Source of the DNA: Candidatus Delongbacteria bacterium
Lineage (GTDB): Bacteria; UBA4055
Reading direction: 5' to 3'
DNA length: 64,000 bases
Assembly (NCBI GenBank): GCA_016937995.1
Contig: JAFGVM010000064.1
Location: 27,636 to 91,635, forward strand
Shown here: one piece after another, positions 6,241-27,521 of the stretch
Numbering within the stretch: the first letter of the stretch is position 1
Layout of the letters: every line of letters starts with the position of its first letter
Notes under the pieces: generated by a model
The model's input: only the letters and a program-made list of their open reading frames with translations
The model's database searches: none
Told to the model about the DNA's origin: nothing
Program-made: the position numbers and the translations under genes

Positions 6241-7092
6241 ATGACAAATGTAAATGCTTTGAAAAATATGCTGAATGATATTGGGCTTAACGATCTTGAG
6301 ACAACTATATATATATGGTTGCTCGAGCACAGGAAAAGTACAGGTTATAAGATAGCAAGTCAGATAAATAAACCTGTTGCAAATACATATAAAGCTCTTG
6401 GAAGTCTTGAAATTAAAGGAGCAGTTATAAGTGACAAGTCATCAGGAAAAGCGTATTTCGATACAGTGCCTATAGAACAATTTTTGAATAAGATGGAAAA
6501 TGAATTTGCCAATACTCGAAAGAATATTATTGATGAAGTTAAAAAGCTTGATGTTGAGCAGGAATCAGGTGGTATTTATGAATTGAAATCAGTAGAAATG
6601 GTTTATGGAAAAGCTTTCAGTATGATCAAATCAGCAGAAAAATTATTACTAATAGATTGCTTTCCTATTCCTATGCAAAAGATAAAAGGTCATATTAAAA
6701 AAGCAGGTAAAAGAAAGATCGATGTTTATTTGAAGAATTATTGTGCAGAGAAGATCGATAATATCAATCAGATCATGTCAAAGAATACTGAGATACCAAT
6801 TGAAAGTATTTCCGGTCAATGGATGATGGTCCTGAAGGATACTGAAGAATCACTTATTGCTATGTTCAATCAGGACGGGACAGAGCTTAAGCATTGTATC
6901 TGGACTACAAACAAATTTCTTTCATTCGTTCTGTTCAACGGTTCTATCTATGAATTTAATTATACTCAGATCCATAAAAAGTTATTTGATGATCAGGGCA
7001 ACAAGATAGATAGGATAAAGGAAGTTGTTGCAGGTCAGCAGAATATTTTAAAATTACTTCAAACTATAGAAAAAGATGTTCATAAAAAGTAA
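6241..7092 (+). CDS. TrmB-family transcriptional regulator (sugar-responsive type)
   Basis: The N-terminal winged-HTH (LETTIYIWLLEHRKSTGYKIASQINKPVANTYKALGSLEIKGAV) is characteristic of the TrmB family. The C-terminal roughly 180 aa are consistent with a TrmB effector domain. Confidence 0.6.
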   Translation: MTNVNALKNMLNDIGLNDLETTIYIWLLEHRKSTGYKIASQINKPVANTYKALGSLEIKGAVISDKSSGKAYFDTVPIEQFLNKMENEFANTRKNIIDEVKKLDVEQESGGIYELKSVEMVYGKAFSMIKSAEKLLLIDCFPIPMQKIKGHIKKAGKRKIDVYLKNYCAEKIDNINQIMSKNTEIPIESISGQWMMVLKDTEESLIAMFNQDGTELKHCIWTTNKFLSFVLFNGSIYEFNYTQIHKKLFDDQGNKIDRIKEVVAGQQNILKLLQTIEKDVHKK

Positions 7093-7742: not shown

Positions 7743-7779
7743 AGGGGACGGTAAGAAACCGTCCCCTACAATTTTTTTT
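7743..7779 (+). terminator. rho-independent terminator (AGGGGACGG-loop-CCGTCCCCT followed by T8)
   Basis: A perfect 9-bp GC-rich stem, 7-nt loop and T-run, lying downstream of the 7337..7630 ORF. Confidence 0.6.
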
Positions 7780-7984
7780 CAATATGTGGAATGATTTCTT
7801 ATTTTTAACACATGGTATTTTCTTGAAACAAATAATCTTAAAACCTCATAGTGAAAGTGCATTTCCTTTCACTCTCCATATCATTCAAAATTTCGAAAAG
7901 TCATTCCTCAAAGATCCGGAAAACTTTTTAAAAGATTATGAGAGATATTATTTTTTATTTTGAAAATAGCATTTATTGCGTTAT

Positions 7985-8001
7985 TTTGTGATTTACACAA
8001 A
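7985..8001. promoter_or_regulatory. inverted repeat TTTGTG-ATTTA-CACAAA about 22 bp upstream of the cyclase-STAND gene start
   Basis: Perfect 6-bp arms with a 5-nt spacer in the 5' region of the 8023 gene. This is a candidate operator or CRP/FNR-like half-site pair. Confidence 0.3.
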
Positions 8002-8022
8002 TAAATATTTCGGGATAAAAAA

Positions 8023-11000
8023 ATGAAAAATCTCATACCTCATTTGATTCAGGAAAAATATTTAAAAAACAAAACATCCGGATGGATCTTCGGTTCTGTA
8101 GTATCAATTGATCTGAAGGGTTTTACAAAAATGACTGAAGATCTTATGAAAGATGGTTACTATGGTGCAGAAACATTATCTGAAATCATTAATAAAGTTT
8201 TCGAGCCTGTAATTGATATAATATACAAAAAAGGCGGATTTGTCACAGCATTTATAGGGGATGCAATTACCGCAGTATTTCCTAATGAATATGCATTCAA
8301 TGCTGAATCTGCTTCTAAAGATATTTTAAAAAAGTTCAGCAAAATAAGTTCGATCTCAATAGAAAATTATAAATTCAATTTAAATATCAGGATAGGTATT
8401 TCCTATGGCAGGGTCATTTGGAAGATAGTTAATGTTCCTGAAAGATCAGTTTATTTTTTCAAAGGAAAAACTGTAGATCTAGCTGCAGATGCTCAACAAA
8501 AAGCTGTGCCTGGGAAAATAAAGATAGACAGATCGTATAAAATTGAAAATGGTAAACCGAATAATAAGAAAGCAGTAATAGAAAATATTTCAGAAGAAGT
8601 ATTAAAAGATTTTGTTCCTGATAATGTTCTTGAAATGAAAACACTGGGTGAATTCAGAGATATAGTATCAATATTCATTACCTTTAATGAAATCAGCACC
8701 GATCTGATCCTGTTGTCTAAGTTCCTTTGCTCTGAAAGTGTAAAATATAAGGGTTATCTAAATAAGATCGACTTTGGAGATAAAGGAGGTATTGCTCTTG
8801 TAGTATTCGGAGCTCCGATCAAGGTAGAAAAATACGCTGAACATGCATTGTCATTTGCAATTGAACTTGAAAAGAGATTTCCATTTATAAAGATCGGTAT
8901 AGCCAAAGGAATTACGTACTGTGGTTTTGTCGGTAGTGCTAAGAGAGCTGAATATACAGTTCTTGGTGATACAGTTAATTTGTCAGCCAGATTGATAAAT
9001 GTTACTCCTAAGGGAAAGATCAGAGTTGATGAGAACATGGCAAAGTATAATTATTCCGGCTTTGAATTTAAAACCGAAGGTAAGTATAAATTCAAAGGTT
9101 TTTCGAAACAATTGGCTGTCTTTTCACCTGAAGTAAGATCACATAAGAAACATTTGGATGTTGAAAGTGTATTCGTAGGCAGAGAAAAAGAAATGCAGGT
9201 CCTGAAAGATTTTATAGAACCGATATTTAAAAATAGATTCGCAGGATATATACAGATAAATGGGAATGCGGGTGTAGGTAAAAGCAGATTGGTAAGTGCA
9301 TTAAAAGATAATCTTGGAAAGAAGAAATTTAAGTGGTTCTTTATTTCATGTGATAATATCGTAAATAAAAGTTTTCAGCCTCTAATATCATTTCTTAATC
9401 AGTATATTCAACTGATAGAGAGTCTGGATATTTATGAAAAAACAAAAATATTTAAAGAACATTTAGGCGAACTTAAGAAAATAAGTAGATCAATAAAAGA
9501 TAATCTCAAGAAGATAGAATTTTTTCTTGGAAAATTACTCGGATTAAATGTAAATGATAAAACTTTTGAAAAACTTCCTTCACAGGATATATATGAAAAC
9601 ACATTATTTGCATTTAAACACTATATGTTGTCATACTGTACTAAATATCCGGTTATACTTGAAATAGATGATATCTATAAAGCTGATGAACAGACTCTTG
9701 ATGTAATAAAAGTATTATCGAGGTCCGAAGAAAATATCCCATTTTGCATTATAGGCTCTTCGAGATATCTTGATAATGGAGAGAAGTTCGTTCCGGGGTT
9801 AGATGATGTTGATGAATTTTCAATAGAATTAAAAACTTTGACAAGATCATCTGCAAGAGCAATTATTGAGTTTCTGCTTAGTGTTAAAATATCGGACAAA
9901 TTGTTCAATACAATTTGGGAAAAATCCACCGGAAACCCTTTTTATACCGAACAGCTGACACTTTTTCTTAAGGAGTCAAAATTTTTATATCTGGAAGAAG
10001 GTACAATGACCATTGATCCAAAGGAATATGCTATCCCGGAGAAAATAAGTTCTGTTATAATTTCAAGGATCGACAGATTAAGTTCAGAACTCAGAACTTC
10101 TATTAAAACAGCATCAGTGCTCGGTAAAGAATTTTCAGCTATGGTACTTTCAAAAATGCTTAAAAGTGAAGATATTGATTCACATTTAAAACTTATAGAA
10201 AAAGAAGCATTCTGGTCAAACATAACCGAGATGTTATACATCTTTAAACATGCACTTATCAGAGACAGTGTTTATCAAATGCAGTTGAAAAAAACTTTAA
10301 AAGTTCTACACAAACTTGCTGCAGAAACGATAAAGTCTGTTCATAAAAAGGGAATAGAGAAATATTATGCAGATATTGCGTATCATTATGAAAAATCCGG
10401 AGACAATAAAAATACAATAGATTATTTGTACAAGGCAGCTTTGTATGCCAATGAGAAATATTTTTTGAAGGAAAGCATTAACCACTATAACAAATTGTTA
10501 AAGTTTGAAACCGATAAAACAAATATCGCTGATATTAAATGCACTCTGGCAGATATGCTTTATACACTCGGTAAATGGGATGAAAGTAAAGCTCTGTATA
10601 AAGAAGCGGAAGTTCTGGCGAAAAAATTAAAGAATATTCGCCTTATGATAAGAGCAAAATCTGGTATTGCTGAAATAGTATTTGAAAAAGGTGATCCAGT
10701 AAAAGCTATGGAAATCTTTAAGAAACTTAATCTACAGGCAAAGAACAATAAATTGTACAGACTTCAGGCTGATATTTTAATTAATATGGGTGTTATAAAT
10801 CGGATATCATCAAAATTTGATGAAGCCCTTAAATGCTATAACTCAGTAATAAAACTAGACAAATTTAATAAAGATGACAGATTAATGTGCGGTGTTTATG
10901 ATAATCTGGGAGTTGTATATCTGAACAATAGTGAGTTAGGTAAAGCAAAAGAGAATTTCAATAAATCAAAAGAGATAGCAAAAAGAACTAATAATATCGT

Positions 11001-11964
11001 TGGTTTAATGCACGCAAGATCAAATGAAGGAATAATATATTACAGGCAGGGAAATACAAAAGAAGCTGAAAAGATATATTTGGAAGCTTTAAAAGTTGCT
11101 GAAGATATTGGACATCTGAGACATAAAAGTACAATCCTGGGGCATCTTGCTTCTATAAGTTATTACAACACTGACTATAATCAAGCATTGGATTATTTAA
11201 ATGAGGGTTACGATATAGCAAATGATCTCGGTGATAAAGCAAGTAAATGTTATTTGTTGTCGTCTATAGGTGTATTGAACCGGAGATTGGGGAATAATAA
11301 AAAAAGTTTTGAATCATTTGAAATCCAAAAAAAATTGGCAAAAGAATTAAATAATCATGAACAATATGCTATGTCTATCGGAAATATTGCTTTTATGCAT
11401 TCACTTCTAGGAAATTTTAAAAAAAGTAATAAGATGTATGAAGAAAGCAACATTCTTACTAAGAAAGTAAATGACAGGTACAGTCTGGGACATAATTATA
11501 TTAGTATGGGAGAGAATTTCAGGCACTTGAAAGATCACAAAAAGTCGATCGAGTATTACAAAAATGGATTAGTGATCGCGGAAGAATTTGATGCGAAATT
11601 TCTTCTGGTTTCGTCATATTATTATTTTGGAGAAGTATATTTTGATGTGAATGACCATAAGAATGCAAAGATATACTTTAGTAAGGCTTTAAACCTAGCT
11701 AAAGAGCTTGAAAGAGATGATTATATTTTCGACAGCAAATTAATGCTGATATTCATTGATAAAAAGATGAAGGATAAAGAAAAAGCACTCCTTGAATTAA
11801 GACCGGATAAACTTGGAGAAAATAAAAAAGCTAATCTTAACAGAATTCTTTTCCTTACTACAGGCATGAAGAAATATAAAACAGCAGCAGTGAAAATTTA
11901 TAGAGATCTATTTGATAAATTTGGATATTACGAATATAAAGTGGCTTTAGATCAATTAAAATAA
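8023..11964 (+). CDS. multidomain signalling protein: tandem class III nucleotide cyclase homology domains (CHD1+CHD2) - STAND/AAA P-loop NTPase - TPR repeats
   Basis: CHD1 spans residues about 20-200 with IDLKGFT and FIGDAIT (both metal-binding Asp present) but a degenerate GKTVDLAADA in place of the GDTVNLAARL block. CHD2 spans residues about 215-340 and lacks both Asp (FITFNEIS, FGAP) but keeps NKIDFGDKG and GDTVNLSARL (Asn and Arg present). There is a Walker A (GNAGVGKS) and Walker B (ILEIDDIY), and the C-terminal 600 aa are rich in TPR-like repeats. Confidence 0.75.
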   Translation: MKNLIPHLIQEKYLKNKTSGWIFGSVVSIDLKGFTKMTEDLMKDGYYGAETLSEIINKVFEPVIDIIYKKGGFVTAFIGDAITAVFPNEYAFNAESASKDILKKFSKISSISIENYKFNLNIRIGISYGRVIWKIVNVPERSVYFFKGKTVDLAADAQQKAVPGKIKIDRSYKIENGKPNNKKAVIENISEEVLKDFVPDNVLEMKTLGEFRDIVSIFITFNEISTDLILLSKFLCSESVKYKGYLNKIDFGDKGGIALVVFGAPIKVEKYAEHALSFAIELEKRFPFIKIGIAKGITYCGFVGSAKRAEYTVLGDTVNLSARLINVTPKGKIRVDENMAKYNYSGFEFKTEGKYKFKGFSKQLAVFSPEVRSHKKHLDVESVFVGREKEMQVLKDFIEPIFKNRFAGYIQINGNAGVGKSRLVSALKDNLGKKKFKWFFISCDNIVNKSFQPLISFLNQYIQLIESLDIYEKTKIFKEHLGELKKISRSIKDNLKKIEFFLGKLLGLNVNDKTFEKLPSQDIYENTLFAFKHYMLSYCTKYPVILEIDDIYKADEQTLDVIKVLSRSEENIPFCIIGSSRYLDNGEKFVPGLDDVDEFSIELKTLTRSSARAIIEFLLSVKISDKLFNTIWEKSTGNPFYTEQLTLFLKESKFLYLEEGTMTIDPKEYAIPEKISSVIISRIDRLSSELRTSIKTASVLGKEFSAMVLSKMLKSEDIDSHLKLIEKEAFWSNITEMLYIFKHALIRDSVYQMQLKKTLKVLHKLAAETIKSVHKKGIEKYYADIAYHYEKSGDNKNTIDYLYKAALYANEKYFLKESINHYNKLLKFETDKTNIADIKCTLADMLYTLGKWDESKALYKEAEVLAKKLKNIRLMIRAKSGIAEIVFEKGDPVKAMEIFKKLNLQAKNNKLYRLQADILINMGVINRISSKFDEALKCYNSVIKLDKFNKDDRLMCGVYDNLGVVYLNNSELGKAKENFNKSKEIAKRTNNIVGLMHARSNEGIIYYRQGNTKEAEKIYLEALKVAEDIGHLRHKSTILGHLASISYYNTDYNQALDYLNEGYDIANDLGDKASKCYLLSSIGVLNRRLGNNKKSFESFEIQKKLAKELNNHEQYAMSIGNIAFMHSLLGNFKKSNKMYEESNILTKKVNDRYSLGHNYISMGENFRHLKDHKKSIEYYKNGLVIAEEFDAKFLLVSSYYYFGEVYFDVNDHKNAKIYFSKALNLAKELERDDYIFDSKLMLIFIDKKMKDKEKALLELRPDKLGENKKANLNRILFLTTGMKKYKTAAVKIYRDLFDKFGYYEYKVALDQLK

Positions 11965-18712: not shown

Positions 18713-20383
18713 TTACTTACCTGCCATCATAGCTTCTACATCACCTTTTACATCACCAATAGGCTTGATATTGAAATTCTGTACAAGGACATTTATAACA
18801 TTTGGCGATAAAAATGCTGGAAGGGTTGGTCCTAAGCGGATCCCTTTAACACCAAGATGCAATAATGCAAGTAATACGGTCACAGCTTTCTGCTCATACC
18901 ATGCAATATCGAATGAAATTGGAAGTTCATTGATATCTTCAAGTCCGAATACTTCTTTCAATTTCAGAGCTATCACAGCTAGAGAATATGAATCGTTACA
19001 CTGACCGGCATCGAGTACTCTCGGGATTCCGCCGATGTCACCAAGGTCAAGTTTGTTGTAACGGTACTTGGCACATCCTGCGGTCAGGATTATAGTGTCT
19101 TTCGGAAGTTCTTTTGCTACTTCAGTGAAATAATCTCTCGAATCATGTCTTCCGTCGCAACCCGCCATTACAACAAATCTCTTGATAGCTCCGGACTTGA
19201 CCGCTTCAACGACCTTGTCAGCCAGCGCGATGACCTGAGCGTGAGCGAATCCGCCGACGATATTTCCTGTCTCGATTTCTGTCGGTGCCGGTAAAGTCTT
19301 TGCCAGTGCGATCACTTCGGAGAAATCTTTCGCTTCGCCTTTAGCAGGTATAGCAATATGTTTCACACTGTCAAAACCGACATTATTAGTTGTGAAAACC
19401 CTGTTCTTATAAGAATCTTTTGGAGGGATCAAGCAATTAGTTGTCAAGATTATTGCTCCATTGAATGATTCGAATTCAGTTCCCTGTTTCCACCATGCAT
19501 TTCCATAGTTGCCTACGAAATGATCATATTTCTTGAAAGCAGGATAATAGTTTGCAGGAAGCATTTCACTGTGCGTATATACATCAACTCCGGTTCCTTC
19601 AGTTTGCTTTAACAATTGCTCCATATCTAACAGATCATGTCCTGAAATTAAGATAGCAGGATTATTTCTAACACCGATATTTACTTCAGTGATCTCAGGA
19701 TTTCCATAAGCTTCTGTATTTGCAGTATCTAAGGCAGCCATTGCATCAACTGAATATTTCCCGGCTTCCATTACTAACCCAACAAGGTCCATCACTTCCA
19801 GAGAATCATCCAGAGTTGCAAGAAGTCCTTTTTCCATGAACATTACTATCTCTTTCACTTCCTTACCAAGTCTTAGTGCATGATCAGCATAAGCAGCCAT
19901 ACCTTTGATTCCAATTGTAAGCAGTTCTCTCAATGAACGGATATCCTCATTCTCAGTTCTCAAAACACCGACCTGAGTAGCTTTTTCATCAATATTCTCA
20001 TCTGTTACAAAGAAAGTTGCAGCATCATGCTGTCCCAATTCTCCAACATCAATTCCCATTTCAGCTACTTTCTTTTTTCCCATCTCACGCATCTCGATAG
20101 TTTCCTTGATCGCTTTTACTAAGTAATTTCTGTCGAAATTTGCATTAGTTATTGTCGAGAACAGCATCTCAAGGATAAATTTATCCATTTCGTTGCAGGA
20201 TTCTGCGTATTCCTTTCTTGTTTCCAGTGAAGCACCTGCCCTGAAGATAAGCATTCCTTTTAATGCGTGGATCAGAAGATCCTGTAAATTTGCTACATCT
20301 GCAGTTTTTCCGCAGAATCCTTTGGCGTAAGAACAGCCTTTGTTGCCGATTGTTTCCTGGCATTGAAAACAGTACATACTCAT
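18713..20383 (-). CDS. hcp: hydroxylamine reductase / hybrid-cluster protein
   Basis: The N-terminal Cys cluster ([27 protein letters not shown]), length 556 aa and a conserved C-terminal hybrid-cluster ligand region. There is an AAGGAG Shine-Dalgarno. Confidence 0.85.
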
Positions 20384-20558
20384 TATAACTCCTTTTTTTT
20401 AGTTTAAATTTTATATTTCTTCGTCATAAACATAATTTGATTCACTCATTTACTGTTTGTAAACTCATTCAAAAATTTTCTTTCTTCTTTGAACTATTTC
20501 ATTTAATTCAAAAATGTTTTAGTTAGAAGTTTTCTTAAACATAATTGCCTGAATTATT

Positions 20559-20879
20559 CTATTTGAATTTCTTTATTACTAGAACAATTATTTGTTCATC
20601 CGTATCGTTTCTCATGCCGTGAGGAATATCTCCAGGGCAAGCTATAATAGTGCCTTCTTTTGCATTGATCTCTTTATCACCTACAGTGAAAACAGCGCTT
20701 CCTTTGTGAGCGAAGAATTCAGAGTCAAAGGGTGTTTTGTGAGGTTTTAGATATGATTTAGGTTCAAGGGTCATGTGAATTATTTCAAAATTAGGATGAA
20801 CTGTCATTTTTCTTCCTACGATTCCATCCTGATCATAGATCGGTTCAAGTTTTAATGGGTCAATAAGCTTCATAGTCAT
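20559..20879 (-). CDS. cupin-domain protein (cupin_2)
   Basis: 106 aa with a two-His cupin core (HKTP...GDIPHGMRN). Confidence 0.5.
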   Translation of the reverse strand: MTMKLIDPLKLEPIYDQDGIVGRKMTVHPNFEIIHMTLEPKSYLKPHKTPFDSEFFAHKGSAVFTVGDKEINAKEGTIIACPGDIPHGMRNDTDEQIIVLVIKKFK

Positions 20880-20883
20880 ACTC

Positions 20884-21222
20884 CTATAGAAGTTTAGTTT
20901 TATTCGTTGGTCGTGGAACTTTATTTACAAGAACTCTAAGAATAGTATCACTTTCATTGTACCAGCAGTGGGGAATATCTTTAGGACTGTCGATCAGTGT
21001 ATCCTTTGTAACGACTTTCTTCTCATCTCCGATCTCAACAATACCTTCACCTTCAAGTACGTAGAAGTAAACATCAACTGGTGTTATATGCTTGATGAGT
21101 TTCTCTCCCGGTTGAAGCTGTATGTAAACTACTAATGCATTATCAGTTGAATATAGATCCCTGGCATCAATACCATGCGGTGTATTTTTCTTTTCTATCT
21201 CTGATACTTTTATTGTCTTCAT
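20884..21222 (-). CDS. cupin-domain protein (cupin_2), paralog-like neighbour
   Basis: 112 aa with a cupin beta-barrel pattern (YIQLQPGEKLIKHITP...DIPHCWYN). Confidence 0.5.
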   Translation of the reverse strand: MKTIKVSEIEKKNTPHGIDARDLYSTDNALVVYIQLQPGEKLIKHITPVDVYFYVLEGEGIVEIGDEKKVVTKDTLIDSPKDIPHCWYNESDTILRVLVNKVPRPTNKTKLL

Positions 21223-21249
21223 TTTATATCTCCAATTTTCTTAATTTAA

Positions 21250-21313
21250 AAGTCAGAAGTCAGAAGTATTTCTCAACTCACAACTCACAACTCACAACCC
21301 ACAACCCACAACT
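21250..21313. repeat. intergenic microsatellite-like tandem repeats: AGTCAGA x2 then 5.9 copies of heptamer CAACYCA
   Basis: Read directly as agtcagaagtcagaagt at 21250-21266 and caactca caactca caactca caaccca caaccca caacta at 21273-21313. This lies between the Fe-S protein stop and the cupin start on the minus strand. Confidence 0.8.
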
Positions 21314-22136
21314 ACAGAATACTTCCACTTATAGATATCACATCCAGCTTTACCATTTTGCTTACACCTGCAATTTCAAGTGCTTTTTGTACGATGACTT
21401 CCATTCCACCACAGCAGGGAACTTCCATTCTGACAACATGGATAGACTTGATATTTTTATTTTTGAATATATATGCAAGTTTTGAAATGTATCTTTCAAC
21501 TCCCTGATCAAGCTTAGGACAGAAAATTATCAGTCTTTTACCTTTTAGAAATTTTTCATGAAAATTCGGATATGATGCCATAACTCCGTCTGCTGCAATC
21601 AGAATATCGGCATTGTCAAAACTCGGATCATTCTGATTTATCAAGTGAAGTTGAACCGGCCAATGTTTCAATTGCGACTTGCCGCTTGCAAGAACAGGTT
21701 CAATATTATGGTTATCAGGAATTGTCTGTGGAGCACTTCCAGGACATCCGCCGGTAGCACAAACGCTTGGTGCATCTCTGAATTGAGGAATATCAATACC
21801 TTTCTTAGTTAAGATCTGTATAGCCTGATTTACATATTTGTCAAGGCCGTGATCGTTCAGATGTTTCAAATGAGCTTTGATCGTATTAGTTCCGGCAGGG
21901 ATAATATTTTCGATGACGAGAGCTTCATCGTATTCATCAGCCTCTCTTTCTTCAGTAGAAATTGCTCCAACAGGACAGTTACCTATACATGCTCCAAGCC
22001 CGTCACAAAATAAGTCACTGATCAATCTTGCTTTTCCATCGATCATTTGCAAAGCTCCCTCAGGACAGTCAGGTATGCAGTTCCCGCATCCGTTACAAAG
22101 TTCAGCATCTATTTTTATTATTTGTCTTTTAGCCAT
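21312..22136 (-). CDS. 4Fe-4S dicluster ferredoxin-domain protein with Cys-rich C-terminal domain
   Basis: Two CxxCxxCxxxCP motifs (CNGCGNCIPDCP and CDGLGACIGNCP), plus a C-terminal region with CATGGCPGS and PCCGG Cys motifs. Confidence 0.55.
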   Translation of the reverse strand: MAKRQIIKIDAELCNGCGNCIPDCPEGALQMIDGKARLISDLFCDGLGACIGNCPVGAISTEEREADEYDEALVIENIIPAGTNTIKAHLKHLNDHGLDKYVNQAIQILTKKGIDIPQFRDAPSVCATGGCPGSAPQTIPDNHNIEPVLASGKSQLKHWPVQLHLINQNDPSFDNADILIAADGVMASYPNFHEKFLKGKRLIIFCPKLDQGVERYISKLAYIFKNKNIKSIHVVRMEVPCCGGMEVIVQKALEIAGVSKMVKLDVISISGSIL

Positions 22137-22300
22137 TTTATATCTCCTTTTATGAGACGTTGCGGTGCAACGTCTTTACGGGTTTGTCATTGCGAACCTC
22201 GGCTTGACGAGGTGTGGCAATCTCGCTCTATACTGTCATACTCGGGCTTGCCCCGGGTATCCAGGCGTATCAGAGACGCTCATGTAGAGCGTCTTTACGG
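22137..22300. repeat. GC-rich (about 52% GC), hairpin-dense intergenic element flanked by 11-bp direct repeats (CGTCTTTACGG)
   Basis: Hairpins AGACGTTGC-GGT-GCAACGTCT (22155-22175), CCTCG-GCTTGA-CGAGG and AGACGCTC-ATGTA-GAGCGTCT (22274-22294). The direct repeat CGTCTTTACGG lies at about 22171-22181 and 22290-22300. It contains an inverse-orientation copy of the 12310 repeat core. Confidence 0.6.
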
Positions 22301-22876
22301 TTCGATCATTACTTTCACATTGTTCCAGAGGTTTATTCCTTCTTTTTTCAGATCGAATGCATTTCCGTTGTAACACCATTGAAGGATCAGTAGTCTCATT
22401 GAACCAACTATTGTTCTAAACACCGAAACAGGATCAAGTTCCTTTTTAATTAGTCCGGACTTTTGTCCTTCTTTGATGAATCCGGTCACAGTCCCTTTAT
22501 GACCATGCATGATAGATCTTGCTTTGTTTGATAGTTCTTCATCATTAACGAAAATTCCTTCTGAGAACATTACTTTTGCCAGATCAGGATCTGAAGAGAA
22601 CTTTTCGTATCTGTCGGTAAGAAATAATTCTATTTTTTCAATAGGGGAGAGAGTACTACCGGCAGGGATATCCGGCATCTCTGATATATCCTTGAAAAGG
22701 TCAAGTATTCCCATTAGAATTGCATGCTTACTTTCATAATGTCTGTATAAAGCAGCTTCGGATACACCTATCTTTGCAGATAAGTTCTTTGTTGTAAGGT
22801 TCTGAATCCCTTCCTGTGCAATAATTGAGATCGAAGTTTTCAGGATCTGCTTTTGTCTTTCGGTCAGTTCACTCAT
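22295..22876 (-). CDS. TetR/AcrR-family transcriptional regulator
   Basis: The N-terminal HTH (TKNLSAKIGVSEAALYRHYESKHAIL) and an approximately 190-aa all-helical protein. Confidence 0.8.
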   Translation of the reverse strand: MSELTERQKQILKTSISIIAQEGIQNLTTKNLSAKIGVSEAALYRHYESKHAILMGILDLFKDISEMPDIPAGSTLSPIEKIELFLTDRYEKFSSDPDLAKVMFSEGIFVNDEELSNKARSIMHGHKGTVTGFIKEGQKSGLIKKELDPVSVFRTIVGSMRLLILQWCYNGNAFDLKKEGINLWNNVKVMIEP

Positions 22877-22887
22877 GATTTTTCCAT

Positions 22888-22907
22888 GTTAGTAAGTGTT
22901 CACTAAC
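22888..22907. promoter_or_regulatory. imperfect palindrome GTTAGTAAGTG-TT-CACTAAC immediately upstream of the tetR start; candidate TetR operator
   Basis: Perfect outer arms GTTAGT/ACTAAC and inner arms AGTG/CACT, placed 12 nt upstream of the tetR ATG in the divergent region shared with the second cyclase-STAND gene. Confidence 0.4.
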
Positions 22908-23026
22908 AAAGATAATACAGAGAGTATTGATAGTTCATGATTAATGTCAGGAAAGGAAAGATAATTGAAAATTAAAATCAAAAGAATAAAGAATTTCAAC
23001 ACAGAGGGACCGTAACCTTTCGTCTA

Positions 23027-23051
23027 TTTTTATTGCGACTCGCAATAAAAA
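23027..23051. promoter_or_regulatory. perfect 25-bp palindrome TTTTTATTGCGA-C-TCGCAATAAAAA in the 5' region of the second cyclase-STAND gene
   Basis: 12-bp perfect arms with a single-base centre, 45 nt upstream of the preferred ATG at 23096. The track's TTG start at 23033 falls inside it. Confidence 0.45.
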
Positions 23052-23095
23052 TCCCTATTTTATCCAAAACCATGAAAATATACGAGGAAGAAACT

Positions 23096-26000
23096 ATGTC
23101 TCAACTGAACGGAGCATTCCCGAAGCATATTCATTCGCCTGAGTATTATATGAATAAACAGTTCATGTTCATTGATATATCAGGGTTTACACCATTGTGT
23201 GATAAATTTATAAGTGAGAGCAGTTACGGAGCAGAAAAGATCGGTGATCTGGTGAACACAGTTTTTAATCCAATTATAGATTTTGTATTTGAAAAAGGTG
23301 GGGATGTTATTTCTTTTGCAGGTGATGCATTGTTCGTTGCAGTTGAAAAGAAATCGGTCAAAGCGGTACAGGATATGTCTCAGAAACTTATAAAAGAACA
23401 GACCATAGATAAAAGTCTTGCCATTACAATAGATATGCTGAAAGATGAATACTACCCGAATATTATAAAGTCAGCTGAAGGAAGTTCATTTAGCTACTAC
23501 CCACAGAAAGATAAAAATGATCTATTGAAAAATACTTTCCCTGACGAGATATATGAGATCTATCAAAGTAATTTCAGAGGTGAACTTAGAGCTGTACCTG
23601 TTTTCTTTATTCATATTTCAGAAAAATATTCTATAAACAAAATAAGACCGTTGCTTGAATTCATTACAGAGAAATCAAAAGAGAATTCTGTTTATATCAA
23701 TAAAATAGAATATCTCGACAAAGGCTGGATGATATTGCTTTCAGCGGGATCACCTGTATATTCCTCCGAAGCACCTGTCAAAATATATGAACTGTTATCC
23801 AAATTCTCCAAGAAAGCTAAAACTTATAATATCCCTGTGCAGATAGGTGGAACTCTTCAAAGAGGTTACTGCGGTATCATCGGTAATGAAAAGAGATGGG
23901 AATTTACTTTCTTAGGGTCAAATGTCAACCTTGCAGCCAGGATCGCCTTTTCTTCAGAAAATTACAAGATCTCCTGTGATGAGTCATTTGCATATTCTTC
24001 TCAAAACCTTTTGAAGTCTGAGTCTATAGGTATAAAGACTTATAAAGGAGTAGGTGAAAGAGAAATCTTTGAAATCACGGGTAAGATCAATGATACAAAA
24101 AATATTTTCGTAGGCAGGGAGAAAGAGGTACTATCATGCTTGAATTTCTTTTCAGGTGACAGAAGAGCTTTTGTACTTTTGAACGGTCCTTCAGGAATTG
24201 GAAAAACAGTACTTGCAGAACATATAATTCAATCTTTGGGTTATAAGTTTCTTATAAGATTAAAAGGTGTTTTCGGAAATGAATCAGCTTTCTCCTTATT
24301 CGATAATTTCTGTGATAAAAATTCGGGAGCAGCTGAAATATTCAAAAAATTCAAAGCTATAAAGCAACCAACTCTAATTTATATAGATGACCTGCATTTT
24401 GCCGATGACAGCAGTTTATTTATGTTTCACAGAATGATCAACGAAGGTAACCCGTTCGTTAATTTCATAGCTACAACGATAGGAAGGGAAAAAGTTAAGA
24501 TCACACCTTTGTCTTACTATGAATCTTTGATAATTGATCTGCAGCCGTTCGACCCGAAAGATATTCAGCATATAACGAAGATGATATCAGGAATTAATAT
24601 AACATTGAAGACCAGTAAAATGCTGCACAGATCAACTCAGGGAAATCCTTTATTCATTACTAAAATACTGCCTTATATAACAAAAGATATTGAAAATTCA
24701 GGAAAAGTTCCCTATTCACTTCAGGAAATAATCTTGATGAAATTAAATGAAATTCCTGATAAAGGACCGGAATTCATTGATGGGGGCTCTGTTTATGGTG
24801 ATATTTTTGATCATGGTGTGGTTAGAGAAGTAATAAATCTGAAGGATAAAATATTTAGAGACATTGTTTCAAAGGCGGAGAACGAAGGATTAGTAAGAAG
24901 ATCTCTTTCCCGTGATGAGATGGAGTTCTCGAACACAATTATAAGAGAAATTATCTATGAAAGACTTTTAAAAAAGAAGATCGATTTTTTCAGGATAAAA
25001 ATAGCAGAAGCTATTGTTGACTCAAAGACTAAAGATCTGAAAAAATTATATAAAGCAGTGACAATGTACTTTTCTGCAAATGATAATAGAGCTCTACCTT
25101 TAGCTCTTAAACTTGTTGAAGAATTTAAAAGAACAAAAGATCATGGTACTTTAAGAAGTATCGTTCAAAGATCTTTTGAGTTCATTAAAAAGAATAACTT
25201 ATATTCAAAGGCTTATGATTTTATTGAGTTGTTTTCAAGATCTTCTCAATTTGTTATTGGTGCAAAACTAACAACAATACTCGAAGAAATAGCCTTCAAG
25301 ATAACTGATTGGAGAAATAATGAAAAATTACTTCTCTATATTGCAAGATTAGTTTTTGAGATACAGTTCAAAGCACCCGAGGAACTTCTGAAAAAATATC
25401 TGGAATTGAAAGGTGAAGATAAACATTATCTTTGGACAAAAGTAAAGACCTGTGCTTATGTAATACCGCAAAACGAAGCTGTGAAGATATTTTACGATCT
25501 GAAAAATAAATTCGAAGGCAATGAAAGGGTAGAGTTCTATATAGATTTTGTGGGTTATGCATTCTTTATCACAGGGAATGTGGACATGGAAAAAGAAGGT
25601 ATAAAGGAATTGCAGAGACTCGAATCATCTATGCCTGTTTATTTAAAAGTATCTTACTTGTTCATAAAGAACAGCATAGCTATTCACAGGGACGATATGA
25701 CTGAATCAAAAAAATGTCTTGATGAAATTACAAGTTATAATAAAAAAGATGTGGATCTTAGTGATTCTTTCTCGATATACAATGATTATTCGATCCTTTA
25801 TCTGAATTTGGCCTATGAAAATTTTGATAAAGAATATATTAAGAGATCTTTAAAGTATTCCATTAAAGCTGTTAAGGCAATGACAGACCTCCAAATAGAA
25901 GCTGATCTGCCTTTGATGACGACCAATCTTGCAAGTTACTATATGACCAGTGGTTATGTGAAGAAGGCGGAAAGAACTTATCTTGAAGGCTTGTATTATG

Positions 26001-26716
26001 GACTAAATATCGATCATCCTGTTGAGGTACTTTATACAAAATCTAGGATTGCTTTTCAAACTTCTGCATCAGGAGCTTATGCTCTTTCGATTAAGTTATC
26101 AGATGAAGTTATTCAGGGAAAGATCACAGATATCCTATCCGGTTCATATACCATCAAATATCTATATGGTGGTAAAAAGGAGAATGATCTCAAAACAGCC
26201 AAAAAATATGCTCTGGAGATAGCTAAATTCGGATCTGCAAAATGTTACTGGGAGATGTCAAGATTAATGACCCAGCAGGCATTTGCTGATAATGATATCA
26301 GTGAAATGAAAAAGATCAGAAGAGACTTGATGAAATGGAGAAAATATACTCAAAGGGCGGGAAATCTGTTTGCAAATGAAACTACGATCAAAATACTTGG
26401 ATTGATGAGTGGAATTAAGACAGAAGCTGTAAAAGTAAGAGACAGATTGTCAAAACTTGAAAAACTGAATGTTAATTTCAGTCTTCAAGGTAAATGCTGC
26501 TATGCTTTAGGACTTCATCATAAAGATATTGATCTTCTCAAAAAAGCAAAGAAATATGCTTTAAAGATGAGAGAATATCCGTTCGTTTTAAGGATCGAAA
26601 AAGAACTATACAGGATCACACAAGATAATTACTGGTCCCGAAGGATGAAAATATCAGAGAAGAAGCTTAAAGAAGTGAATAAGATAAAGAGTATTGAGGA
26701 ATTCTTTGGATACTAA
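23096..26716 (+). CDS. multidomain signalling protein, paralog of the 8023 gene: CHD1 + CHD2 cyclase homology domains - STAND P-loop NTPase - TPR repeats (the track ORF starts at a TTG at 23033; the ATG at 23096 has a GAGGAAG Shine-Dalgarno)
   Basis: CHD1 has FIDISGFT and SFAGDAL (both Asp present). CHD2 has FFIHISEKY and LLSAGSP (Asp absent) but LGSNVNLAARIAF (Asn/Arg present). Walker A is LNGPSGIGKT and Walker B is TLIYIDDLHF. A long TPR-like helical C-terminus gives the same order as the 8023 protein. Confidence 0.75.
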   Translation: MSQLNGAFPKHIHSPEYYMNKQFMFIDISGFTPLCDKFISESSYGAEKIGDLVNTVFNPIIDFVFEKGGDVISFAGDALFVAVEKKSVKAVQDMSQKLIKEQTIDKSLAITIDMLKDEYYPNIIKSAEGSSFSYYPQKDKNDLLKNTFPDEIYEIYQSNFRGELRAVPVFFIHISEKYSINKIRPLLEFITEKSKENSVYINKIEYLDKGWMILLSAGSPVYSSEAPVKIYELLSKFSKKAKTYNIPVQIGGTLQRGYCGIIGNEKRWEFTFLGSNVNLAARIAFSSENYKISCDESFAYSSQNLLKSESIGIKTYKGVGEREIFEITGKINDTKNIFVGREKEVLSCLNFFSGDRRAFVLLNGPSGIGKTVLAEHIIQSLGYKFLIRLKGVFGNESAFSLFDNFCDKNSGAAEIFKKFKAIKQPTLIYIDDLHFADDSSLFMFHRMINEGNPFVNFIATTIGREKVKITPLSYYESLIIDLQPFDPKDIQHITKMISGINITLKTSKMLHRSTQGNPLFITKILPYITKDIENSGKVPYSLQEIILMKLNEIPDKGPEFIDGGSVYGDIFDHGVVREVINLKDKIFRDIVSKAENEGLVRRSLSRDEMEFSNTIIREIIYERLLKKKIDFFRIKIAEAIVDSKTKDLKKLYKAVTMYFSANDNRALPLALKLVEEFKRTKDHGTLRSIVQRSFEFIKKNNLYSKAYDFIELFSRSSQFVIGAKLTTILEEIAFKITDWRNNEKLLLYIARLVFEIQFKAPEELLKKYLELKGEDKHYLWTKVKTCAYVIPQNEAVKIFYDLKNKFEGNERVEFYIDFVGYAFFITGNVDMEKEGIKELQRLESSMPVYLKVSYLFIKNSIAIHRDDMTESKKCLDEITSYNKKDVDLSDSFSIYNDYSILYLNLAYENFDKEYIKRSLKYSIKAVKAMTDLQIEADLPLMTTNLASYYMTSGYVKKAERTYLEGLYYGLNIDHPVEVLYTKSRIAFQTSASGAYALSIKLSDEVIQGKITDILSGSYTIKYLYGGKKENDLKTAKKYALEIAKFGSAKCYWEMSRLMTQQAFADNDISEMKKIRRDLMKWRKYTQRAGNLFANETTIKILGLMSGIKTEAVKVRDRLSKLEKLNVNFSLQGKCCYALGLHHKDIDLLKKAKKYALKMREYPFVLRIEKELYRITQDNYWSRRMKISEKKLKEVNKIKSIEEFFGY

Positions 26717-26729
26717 TAGCAGGTATGAA

Positions 26730-27521
26730 CTATCTTCCGTACTTATAGAATAATTTATTTACCCATACCGGCATAAATCTGAGGAATGTTTTTGCCAATA
26801 TTTTAGGTATCTGAAAATAACCGTGAAGTTTTTTTACCAGAAAAAAAGAAACTCTCATTTCATTTTTAACGTTGCTGAATAGAGTTCTGTTCTTCCAGAA
26901 CTTATCTGTAACCCTGAAATATATCAACGGTTCATGAATGTTATTCATTTTAACATTTTTAACGACTGCTCTAGACCAGAGATCATAATCCTGACTTTTT
27001 CTGTAATTCTCGTTATAATATCCGACAACATCAAAGAACTCTCTTCTGAAAGCTACAGATGGGTGAATGAAAGGATTTCTTGTAAATGCCCATTTTTTTA
27101 TGTCTACCTGGTAAGGCATATTTTTATAGAATATCTCTGCTCCGTCCTTATTAATCTCAATACATTCTGTACCGATTAACATAAGATCTTCATCGACTTT
27201 AAATTCTTCCAGAGTTCTCTCGAATCTTTTACGGTGAGAAATGTCATCAGCGTCCATTCTGAAATAAATATCAGCAGGATATTTTTTTAATGCTTTGTTC
27301 AAGGTTGCAGCAAGACCGATATTTTCTTCATTTCTCATGATGGTGATCCTGCGATCGTTCAGAGAATTAATGTACAGGTCAATATCTTCATTAGTTTTAC
27401 CATCTATACAAAGTATAAGATCAAAATCAGAATATGATTGAGATAGAATACTGTTCAGAGCCAATTTGAAATACTTTAGCTCATCACTGAGGGAAACAGG
27501 TAGTAAAACTTTGATATTCAT
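26730..27521 (-). CDS. family 2 glycosyltransferase
   Basis: A GT-A fold N-terminus (LILCIDGKTNED...DADD), 263 aa. Confidence 0.6.
   Translation of the reverse strand: MNIKVLLPVSLSDELKYFKLALNSILSQSYSDFDLILCIDGKTNEDIDLYINSLNDRRITIMRNEENIGLAATLNKALKKYPADIYFRMDADDISHRKRFERTLEEFKVDEDLMLIGTECIEINKDGAEIFYKNMPYQVDIKKWAFTRNPFIHPSVAFRREFFDVVGYYNENYRKSQDYDLWSRAVVKNVKMNNIHEPLIYFRVTDKFWKNRTLFSNVKNEMRVSFFLVKKLHGYFQIPKILAKTFLRFMPVWVNKLFYKYGR

Follow-up and report, generated by a model that had tools for sequence, protein, structure and literature searches.

We analysed a window of 64 kb (64,000 nucleotides), in which a large gene on the plus strand, coding for a predicted cyclase with a STAND module, lies divergently to a gene for a TetR-family regulator on the minus strand. 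The divergent TetR gene of the first-pass annotation was borne out by its Pfam domains (TetR_N and TetR_C_4), and the intergenic region measured 219 bp, compared with the 220 bp given there. The genes and sites of the locus, together with a paralog of the cyclase gene elsewhere in the window, are as follows.

8023..11964, plus strand: paralog, sAC-like cyclase (full-length C1, AAA_16, clear TPR_12 repeats)
18713..22136, minus strand: co-directional block 3′ of tetR (Pfam), with the next three entries
18713-20383, minus strand: hybrid cluster protein/prismane (hcp; Pfam)
20884-21222 and 20559-20879, minus strand: two cupins (Pfam)
21312-22136, minus strand: 274-aa 4Fe-4S protein (Pfam)
22295..22876, minus strand: TetR-family regulator gene (193 aa; TetR_N and TetR_C_4/YsiA-like)
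22888..22907: 20-bp dyad, GTTAGTGAACACTTACTAAC on the tetR strand, probable TetR operator
22923..22950, minus strand: promoter-like site of tetR, CTGACA-N16-AATACT (promoter scan)
22961..23024: 64-nt stretch lacking in the intergenic region of a close relative, locus L049 (pairwise alignment)
23026..23052: perfect 27-bp palindrome, ATTTTTATTGCGA-C-TCGCAATAAAAAT, over the -35-like hexamer and spacer of the putative cyclase promoter
23033..23061, plus strand: putative cyclase promoter, TTGCGA-N17-TATTTT, from a conserved layout
23096..26716, plus strand: sAC-like adenylyl cyclase-STAND-TPR-like gene (1206 aa)
23150..23500, plus strand: CHD1, shortened C1-like cyclase domain (residues ~19-135; metal-binding D27 and D77)
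23573..24085, plus strand: CHD2, complete C2-like cyclase domain (residues ~160-330; K203, T271, N278, R282)
24119..24940, plus strand: STAND-type P-loop NTPase and helical/winged-helix region (Walker A GPSGIGKT, Walker B IYIDDLHF)
24944..26713, plus strand: all-alpha TPR-like C-terminal solenoid, presumed sensor (AF2 model, residues ~617-1206)

By sequence and predicted structure, 23096-26716 codes for a bacterial protein related to the soluble adenylyl cyclase (sAC) of animals, in which two cyclase domains are joined to a STAND ATPase and a helical sensor. A Candidatus Delongbacteria MAG contains an identical protein (100%), annotated as "AAA family ATPase". The reading frame and the motifs quoted for it in the first-pass annotation were all present, at positions exact or at most one base off: FIDISGFT at residues 25-32, SFAGDAL at 73-79, LGSNVNLAARIAF at 273-285, GPSGIGKT at 364-371 and IYIDDLHF at 428-435. 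An in-frame TTG lies at 23033, but the ATG at 23096 was favoured as the start codon by a GAGGA Shine-Dalgarno sequence at 23084-23088 and by the alignment of orthologs.

The closest PDB sequence match of the protein was human ADCY10 (E = 4e-17), which aligned with C1 and C2 in order. The AF2 model of residues 1-345 (pLDDT 90.5, pTM 0.88) gave the same picture in a Foldseek search, where human sAC accounted for all of the top 24 matches (24/24; E down to 4e-21, TMq 0.70-0.77), so that ADCY10 was the best match in both sequence and fold. Pfam Guanylate_cyc covered residues 230-301, within CHD2, and HMMER aligned CHD2 to ADCY10 residues 284-454. The alignment to ADCY10 paired D27 with D47, D77 with D99, K203 with K334, T271 with T405, N278 with N412 and R282 with R416, so that the catalytic residues of the human enzyme are all found here; for the roles of human D47, D99, T405, K95 and R176 we follow PMC12250328. 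None of the six residues varied among 22 orthologs, which reach down to 29% identity, and D27 and D77 were unchanged across 29 aligned sequences. As in ADCY10, the tandem class III domains in one chain would form a C1-C2 pseudo-heterodimer with a single active site, to which C1 would give the two metal-binding Asp and C2 the Lys/Thr substrate pair and the Asn/Arg transition-state pair. The division proposed earlier, with Asp in CHD1 and Asn/Arg in CHD2, agreed with the alignments and the AF2 model, which add Lys/Thr to the C2 side.

The likeness extends beyond the catalytic core, since in full-length mammalian sAC, too, C1-C2 is described as leading into a P-loop-containing STAND domain (PMC12802110), and both proteins then continue into a long helical C-terminus. 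The differences from ADCY10 are nevertheless considerable: sequence identity is just ~19-20%, the protein is 1206 aa long compared with ~1610 aa, and an autoinhibitory motif and a haem domain are not evident in it. Its C1 is shorter by ~100 residues; the AF2 model has no alpha4 or C-terminal sub-domain in CHD1, and the alpha4 region, which bears R176 in the human enzyme, is missing from both model and alignment. CHD2 begins 86-95 aa after D77, compared with 130-179 aa in proteins of the paralog type. The position of human K95 is occupied by Ser73, indicating that the bicarbonate site is not conserved. With only the metal-binding half of C1 left, and without the residues that make up the bicarbonate site in mammalian sAC, mammalian-type bicarbonate control appears unlikely from the alignment and the model. 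The shortened C1 could weaken catalysis despite the kept catalytic residues.

Downstream of the cyclase domains, Pfam assigned AAA_16, with weaker NACHT and nSTAND3 matches, and Walker A (G364-K370) and Walker B (D431/D432) were invariant in the ortholog alignment. The best fold match of residues 331-1206 was the STAND-TPR protein 6mfv (Pyrococcus PH0952; E = 4e-11), followed by Apaf-1, Avs3/4 and MalT. These proteins share Walker A and B with the window protein, as well as the order of N-terminal effector, NTPase core, helical arm and repeat sensor; they differ in the effector, which is a DNA-binding, nuclease or CARD domain in them and a cyclase pair here. Global TM-scores to them were low (0.17-0.27) because the domain arrangement differs. 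Model confidence was low in the stretch after the NTPase core, whereas residues ~617-1206 formed helix-turn-helix repeats with pLDDT mostly >85 (83 for the C-terminal model overall). Pfam found no TPR in the protein, and the C-terminal 590 residues are instead a predicted all-alpha solenoid. Were the protein to work like other STAND proteins, its solenoid would detect a ligand or a protein partner, and its NTPase would serve as a nucleotide-dependent switch gating cAMP synthesis. PADLOC assigned the protein to no defence system and gave weak domain-level PycC matches only.

This architecture had been described as an exact repeat of that of the gene at 8023. The order cyclase-cyclase-STAND-helical repeat held, but CHD1 is shortened relative to the full-length C1 of the paralog, and the repeats, canonical TPR_12 in the paralog, are not recognized as TPR by Pfam in the window protein and its subfamily. 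Human ADCY10 was likewise the top PDB sequence match of the paralog, with C1 and C2 in order. BLASTP aligned the two over ~420 N-terminal residues at 26% identity (E = 2e-31), the C-terminal halves being unalignable; this low identity, and the orthologs that each paralog has of its own, agree with the old duplication suggested earlier. The paralog's leader does contain the reported dyad, TTTGTG-ATTTA-CACAAA at 7986-8002, but its arms of 6 nt are not above chance. The architecture is common, with 1714 cluster representatives at E <= 1e-10. Among the 150 representatives listed, most are 1200-1450 aa long with two matched stretches. The subfamily of the window protein is small (~12 clusters at 50% identity, E <= 1e-30). 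It shares the order of C1-C2, P-loop ATPase (AAA_16) and helical repeats, and a Thr-type (class IIIb-like) C2, with the paralog and with bacterial sAC-like cyclases such as the Chloroflexus enzyme of Kobayashi et al. 2004 (cited in PMC11006738); its minimal C1 sets it apart from them.

On the other side of the intergenic region, tetR stood first in a co-directional tetR-ferredoxin-cupin(-cupin)-hcp arrangement in ~10 loci from six lineages, including two 1-kb contigs that reach just the start of the block. Fer4, one or two cupins and hcp followed tetR in loci L038-L048, as far as Cloacimonetes, with TetR identities of 48-77%; across all loci, identity was 58-80% in Delongbacteria and 48% in Cloacimonetes. 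The divergent gene upstream of tetR differed from locus to locus. The imperfect dyad noted earlier beside the tetR start is real, with 7 of 10 positions pairing as a 20-mer, and it is the sole site of its kind in the window (0.17 expected). Since six lineages (L038, L041, L044, L045, L047 and L049) keep it 11-21 nt 5′ of the tetR start, it is very likely a real TetR operator, and on this sequence evidence it is probably the autoregulatory operator of the tetR operon. The dyad lies downstream of the -10-like element of tetR; a CTGA(C/T)ATTAATCAT block was kept in L038, L041, L049 and L050, and TTGACA/TTGCCA-N17-TAAATT directly preceded the dyad in L044, L045 and L047. The regulator resembles YsiA/FadR-like TetR repressors (PF08359) in its TetR_N and TetR_C_4 domains and in the conserved 20-bp dyad at its own promoter/leader; its putative targets are the ferredoxin-cupin-hcp block, in contrast to the fatty-acid or efflux genes of those repressors. 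The hcp regulators described in the papers found (PMC1274295 and PMC12750200) are HcpR, NsrR, FNR and similar, none of them of the TetR type.

The first-pass annotation had proposed that TetR represses the cyclase gene through both palindromes of the intergenic region until a small-molecule ligand releases it. The divergent genes with a TetR-type dyad between them, their adjacency in both the window and L049 (TetR 80% identical), and the position of the 27-bp palindrome over the putative cyclase -35 element and spacer would all fit this proposal. These two genomes were, however, the only ones with the adjacency. TetR was not found by tblastn in 34 cyclase-homolog loci or in the gene lists of three more (L035-L037), so that all 37 homolog loci, ~20 of them cyclase-ortholog loci, lack it, and the cyclase was not found in tetR loci L038-L044. 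The usual neighbourhood of cyclase orthologs is FTHFS-MatE, and the conserved partner of tetR is the fer4-cupin-cupin-hcp block, which follows it in every locus long enough to show it. The dyad lies ~125 bp upstream of the conserved promoter-like elements of the cyclase gene, and the 27-bp palindrome shares no half-site with it and is absent from L049. Binding of TetR to either or both sites to repress the cyclase gene is thus improbable.

The cyclase gene would have come to occupy the variable position 5′ of tetR in the shallow lineage of the window alone, so the two divergent genes do not make up a regulatory module. Judged from gene order and the dyad, the target of TetR is most likely its own hybrid-cluster-protein operon and not the cyclase gene, and the proposed regulatory link is therefore mostly an accident of gene order. 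TetR would autoregulate tetR-ferredoxin-cupin-cupin-hcp through the dyad at 22888-22907. We consider it likely that the locus consists of two unrelated back-to-back units, the sAC-like cyclase and the autoregulated tetR operon, with a lineage-specific palindrome that is not a TetR site. Some co-regulation via the shared divergent region is possible, the adjacency being kept in L049.

The palindrome itself is perfect, as reported, but longer: 13+1+13 = 27 bp (23026-23052), not 25 bp. It occurs once in the window, where it is the second-longest perfect inverted repeat, and it was not conserved in L049 or the other orthologs examined. L049 nevertheless keeps the flanking -35-like and -10-like elements at the exact 17-nt spacing (TTGCAA-N17-TATTTT), and six MatE-type orthologs have TTGTTT/TTGTAT-N17-TATTTT/TATTAT. 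The window version matches 8 of 12 consensus positions, under the promoter-scan threshold. This conserved TTGnnn-N17-TATTTT layout would place the palindrome over the -35 element and spacer, instead of in the 5′ UTR as first described.

A 12-bp RNA hairpin, situated in a long 5′ leader and working as an attenuator, terminator or stability element, would require transcription from further upstream, and a promoter-like site (TTGAAA-N18-AAGAAT) does lie at 22965-22994. The terminator scan flagged the plus strand, with a 12-pair stem followed by CCCTATTTTA, and the leader at 23000-23110 folds at -20.5 kcal/mol (z = -2.65). The upstream site, however, sits inside the 64-nt window-specific insertion, and with the conserved -35/-10-like pair transcription would begin 3′ of the hairpin. 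Only three G-C pairs occur in the AT-rich stem and the T-tract is broken, whereas true terminators of the window are built as A-run/stem/T-run; Rfam gave no match. We regard such a hairpin as very doubtful.

The palindrome would rather be a T-tract/A-tract of the cyclase's own promoter that became perfectly symmetrical in this lineage, either as a neutral product of mutation or as the site of another dimeric repressor. An origin without function, in which a small number of substitutions or one template switch turned an ancestral quasi-palindrome into a perfect one, has a little less than an even chance in our view. All orthologs have a T-rich tract ahead of the -35 element, and the right arm is mostly ancestral, the window spacer CTCGCAATAAAAATCCC matching TTAGCCCATAAAAACCT of locus L008 at 12 of 17 positions; the palindrome is lineage-specific, and the adjoining 64-nt insertion shows recent rearrangement of the spacer region. 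Against this origin, perfect 27-bp symmetry would soon decay without selection, and its location over the promoter is suggestive of function.

A different dimeric transcription factor that blocks RNA polymerase at the cyclase promoter in the lineage of the window is a less probable explanation, though better placed than the hairpin. The palindrome is centred ~30 nt 5′ of the inferred start site and covers the -35 element and spacer, and its 13-nt arms exceeded those in all 30 block shuffles; arms of up to 12 nt in the shuffles make this excess modest. The single copy in the window speaks against an operator, as does the lack of the palindrome in every other ortholog, the closest relative that shares the gene order included. 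The arm 9-mer TTTATTGCG has one other copy in the window, 43 nt 5′ of the start codon of the paralog (0.55 expected), which may merely reflect a similar -35/T-tract promoter element. A perfect 13+13 palindrome exactly at an operator-like position may have a regulatory role.

The cyclase gene in the window is separated by a 219-bp gap from a divergently oriented tetR gene. The features concerned are as follows (window positions).

8023-11964, plus strand, sAC-like paralog of the cyclase with a full-length C1
18713-20383, minus strand, hybrid cluster protein gene (hcp)
22295-22876, minus strand, tetR, encoding 193 aa with TetR_N and TetR_C_4 domains
22888-22907, 20-bp imperfect dyad, putative TetR operator
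23026-23052, 27-bp palindrome
23096-26716, plus strand, cyclase gene

The 1206-aa product of the cyclase gene was 100% identical to a Delongbacteria MAG protein annotated as an AAA family ATPase. The sequence GAGGA (23084-23088) precedes the ATG at 23096, from which the N-termini of 24 orthologs align; this ATG is therefore the likely start, and an in-frame TTG at 23033 is probably unused. All of the cyclase and STAND motifs quoted in the first-pass annotation were present in the product. The proposed paralogy with the gene at 8023 was recovered over ~420 N-terminal residues (BLASTP, 26% identity, E = 2e-31), but the C-terminal halves of the two proteins were not alignable.

HMMER comparison identified tandem cyclase domains that match ADCY10 in order, the first C1 and the second C2, and for both the cyclase and its paralog the best solved relatives by sequence were the human ADCY10 catalytic domains. 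Residues 1-345 were modelled with AlphaFold2 from 29 sequences, giving a pLDDT of 90.5 and a pTM of 0.88. When this model was searched against the PDB using Foldseek, the 24 best matches were all human sAC, extending across both domains (E down to 4e-21, TMq 0.70-0.77), and C1-C2 pairs of transmembrane cyclases ranked after them. The alignment to ADCY10 gave the following correspondences.

Catalytic residues of the cyclase and their human sAC counterparts (HMMER alignment to ADCY10)
D27, D77: human D47, D99; metal-binding (C1)
K203, T271: human K334, T405; substrate (C2)
N278, R282: human N412, R416; transition state (C2)

The roles given for human K334, N412 and R416 are those usual in class III cyclases. 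Across 22 orthologs, the most distant at 29% identity, none of the six residues varied, which argues for a working active site; the predicted activity is cAMP synthesis at one site shared by C1 and C2. An NCBIfam search of the cyclase returned no informative equivalog, and the PADLOC defence models produced weak domain-level matches to PycC and P-loop entries with no system assigned.

The two nucleotide-binding motifs of the STAND module were likewise conserved.

Residues 364-371, Walker A, GPSGIGKT, invariant in 24 sequences
Residues 428-435, Walker B, IYIDDLHF, invariant in 24 sequences

Among Pfam families, AAA_16 matched above its cut-off and NACHT and nSTAND3 matched weakly. The cyclase-cyclase-STAND-TPR architecture of the first-pass annotation had no counterpart in Pfam as regards the TPR, none being detected at E <= 0.01, but it appears right at the fold level, since the best Foldseek match to a model of residues 331-1206 (pLDDT 83) was the STAND-TPR protein 6mfv (E = 4e-11), followed by Apaf-1, Avs3/4, MalT and NLRP3. 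In this model, the alpha/beta NTPase core is followed by an arm whose fold is uncertain, as model residues 217-295 have low pLDDT, and then by ~590 residues of paired helices; the last part forms an all-alpha solenoid whose fold matches include TPR-containing proteins. Full-length mammalian sAC has a similar order, C1 and C2 being followed by a predicted STAND domain that contains a P-loop, and a 2025 study describes how this domain controls catalysis as still unresolved (PMC12802110). Bacterial enzymes of the sAC-like type were already described by Kobayashi et al. (cited in PMC11006738). A first literature search on sAC, STAND and TPR in bacteria yielded nothing pertinent, later ones the sAC papers cited here. 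By analogy with other STAND proteins, the solenoid would be the sensor, for a ligand or a partner, and cyclase activity would be gated by the NTPase switch.

In human sAC, D47, D99 and T405 are involved in ATP binding, and K95 and R176 in bicarbonate activation (PMC12250328). We looked for both bicarbonate-site residues in the cyclase and found neither. The position of human K95 is occupied by Ser73 in all close orthologs, and both the alpha4 helix and the C-terminal sub-domain are missing from the modelled C1 (AlphaFold2), so that R176 has no counterpart. C1 is short: the distance from the second metal-binding Asp to the start of C2 was 86-95 residues, compared with 130-179 in the paralog type and ~185 in human sAC. 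Bicarbonate control of the mammalian kind is thus unlikely, as judged from sequence and model. These residues mark bicarbonate regulation and not the fold family.

A full HMMER scan, covering 1.84 billion cluster representatives, found 1714 proteins with E <= 1e-10. Of the 150 matches listed, most had a length of 1200-1450 aa and aligned in two stretches. E <= 1e-30 was reached by only 12 proteins, and these are the short-C1 subfamily, in which C1 is reduced to its metal-binding half. By these matches, the sAC-like kind is common and widespread, and the short-C1 variant is a small clade. The cyclase gene is a further member, of the short-C1 subfamily, of this known sAC-like kind. A more ambitious reading combines an undescribed small sAC-like subfamily that has lost its pocket and is controlled entirely via the STAND-solenoid with a new operator, the 27-bp palindrome, gained for another repressor in the lineage of the window; we regard this combination as possible but rather doubtful. 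If it were true, the C1 of the short-C1 subfamily (about a dozen 50%-identity clusters, including the Delongbacteria orthologs of the window) would be a metal-binding half-domain, and the bicarbonate/forskolin pocket, a regulatory pseudo-site, would have been lost. Independently of this reading, the short-C1 bacterial cyclases, with a minimal C1 and a fully conserved active site, could reveal what the smallest working C1-C2 pair is and in what way catalysis is controlled by the STAND module of sAC.

The first-pass annotation had further proposed that the TetR protein regulates the cyclase. Divergent gene order and palindromes are weak regulatory evidence unless conserved, and conserved divergent adjacency was not observed. 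No TetR gene was found within 3-4 kb of the cyclase in ~20 ortholog loci (54-73% identity) or in any of the 37 homolog loci in all; the usual context of the orthologs was FTHFS, then a divergent MatE gene, sometimes a GNAT acetyltransferase, and then the cyclase. Conversely, tblastn detected no cyclase near tetR in seven loci of relatives (L038-L044), and none appeared in the gene lists of four others (L045-L048). The sole exception was L049, a 1.1-kb contig in which a TetR gene with 80% identical product lies divergent from the start of a cyclase ortholog (MTYKNGAFPKHINTPEYY...FIDISGFTPLCDKF). Since only the window and L049 show the pairing, the adjacency, though real, does not extend beyond a shallow lineage. 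The dyad, moreover, lies ~125 bp upstream of the -35-like hexamer (23033-23038) of the inferred cyclase promoter, and the palindrome over that hexamer is unrelated to the dyad in sequence, with no half-site in common. The notion that a TetR switch, gated by a ligand, acts on a STAND protein that makes cAMP does not hold up against related genomes.

In the window, the cyclase occupies a variable slot between a conserved GT2 glycosyltransferase gene (26730-27521, minus strand) and tetR (to 22876). The same slot is empty in L041 and L042 and holds an 827-aa protein without a Pfam domain in L038-L040. The neighbour upstream of tetR varied among the loci, being the 827-aa protein, a directly adjoining GT2 gene, a DUF5128/RND efflux cluster or others. 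This variability suggests that the GT2-tetR slot is a local hotspot of gene insertion. We considered whether the 827-aa protein is a truncated cyclase homolog and rejected this, since tblastn of the cyclase against these loci gave no match at E <= 1e-3.

On its other side, tetR was found in a stable context. Its product matched PF00440 and PF08359 above cut-offs (E = 2e-9 each), and among tetR ortholog loci taken at 48-80% identity, every sufficiently long one (L038-L048) had tetR followed by a co-directional 4Fe-4S protein (271-274 aa, AF_0155-like), one or two cupins and a hybrid cluster protein. This block spans Delongbacteria and Cloacimonetes, and it is present on the minus strand of the window from 22876 down to 18713. 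The 556-aa gene at 18713 was also considered as FTHFS, which would have matched the context of the cyclase orthologs, and was identified as the hybrid cluster protein (PF03063).

The imperfect dyad reported in the first-pass annotation was present and was kept at the same position, 11-21 nt before the true tetR start, in six lineages. Its motif occurs once in the window (0.17 expected).

Dyad sequences on the tetR strand (window and loci of relatives)
Window, L049, L050: GTTAGTGAACACTTACTAAC
L038: GTTAGTGAATACTTACTAAC
L041: GTTAGTGAACACCTACCAAC
L044: GTTAGTAAACGTTCACTTAC
L045: GTCAGTAAATGTTCACTTAC
L047: GTAAGTAAGTGCTTACTAAC

In L044, L045 and L047, the dyad directly follows a near-consensus TTGACA/TTGCCA-N17-TAAATT. 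The simplest reading of this sequence conservation is that the dyad is a predicted autoregulatory TetR operator of the tetR-hcp operon, at which TetR would repress its own operon until released by a ligand. The hcp regulators that we found in the literature (HcpR, NsrR, FNR and similar) include none of the TetR type, so tetR may represent an undescribed regulator class for hcp; a TetR operator on hcp operons would amount to a new regulator class for nitrosative/redox stress genes. The gap between tetR and the ferredoxin gene is 158 nt in the window, compared with 4-74 nt in orthologous loci, and contains REP-like hairpins at 22155-22181 (AGACGTTGCGGTGCAACGTCTTTACGG) and 22274-22300 (AGACGCTCATGTAGAGCGTCTTTACGG; 0.01 expected), which look like inserted small repeat elements.

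For the cyclase gene itself, upstream regions of all MatE-type orthologs carried TTGTTT (or TTGTAT), exactly 17 nt, and TATTTT (or TATTAT). Pairwise alignment with L049 (TTGCAA-N17-TATTTTATCC) placed the corresponding elements of the window at TTGCGA (23033-23038)-N17-TATTTTATCC (from 23056). The window pair matches consensus at 8/12 positions, below the promoter-scan threshold, and its support therefore comes from conservation of both elements and their spacing, not from consensus strength. On this comparison, the cyclase is probably transcribed from TTGCGA-N17-TATTTT. MAFFT had placed a 9-nt insertion in the -35 region of the window; on a direct count of the spacers, a uniform length of 17 nt agrees better with the sequences and pairs TTGCGA with TTGTTT, so the insertion was rejected. 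The alignment with L049 also showed ~93% identity and an identical dyad over the tetR-proximal 90 nt, and 64 nt extra in the window (22961-23024). This stretch, which L049 as the closest relative lacks, contains a promoter-like TTGAAA-N18-AAGAAT (promoter scan).

The palindrome within this promoter region had been described as a perfect 25-bp repeat; its perfection was borne out, and its length is 27 bp (13+1+13, ATTGCGANTCGCAAT). Only one perfect inverted repeat in the window is longer, and 30 block shuffles produced no arm longer than 12 nt, compared with 13 nt here. If the promoter is placed correctly, it reaches across the T-tract and the -35 hexamer into most of the spacer, and its centre falls ~30 nt before the inferred start site. 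It may be an operator for another repressor; neither the palindrome nor the dyad has a further copy in the window. Alternatively, a quasi-palindrome may have been perfected neutrally, in the manner of template switching. L049 retains the -35-like and -10-like elements, but hardly any position of its 17-nt spacer agrees with that of the window, and the palindrome is therefore missing there. The window spacer is closer to the one in L008, a more distant locus (12/17 positions alike); the right arm is therefore largely ancestral, with perfect symmetry completed in the lineage of the window.

The palindrome also remains readable as an RNA hairpin in a longer leader. Such a hairpin would fold stably, and a simple terminator scan flagged it as weakly terminator-like, but it had no Rfam match, the scan of 22100-23200 giving only a chance SECIS_4 hit below threshold. 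It does not fit an intrinsic terminator, having only three G-C pairs, an interrupted T-tract and no gene end upstream on either strand. The other long palindromes of the window are terminators of the form A-run/stem/T-run, set between convergent or tandem genes; in this one the polarity is reversed, with the T-run in front, and the genes on either side diverge.

The 9-mer TTTATTGCG occurs three times in the window (0.55 expected), twice in the palindrome arms (23029-23049) and once at 7972-7980, 43 nt upstream of the paralog start; it may be a shared T-tract and TTGCG -35-like element of both sAC-like genes. The paralog leader also holds the dyad TTTGTG-ATTTA-CACAAA (7986-8002, 6+5+6), whose 6-nt arms are not above chance; further upstream of the paralog lie a TrmB-family regulator gene (6241-7092), a pair of small ORFs and a G+C-rich hairpin (7743-7767). 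Finally, a cyclase ortholog is carried by LBWG01000028.1 (L005/L012), deposited as Candidatus Uhrbacteria; its cyclase upstream region is near-identical to that of a Delongbacteria MAG contig (L002), which suggests that this public contig is mis-binned.
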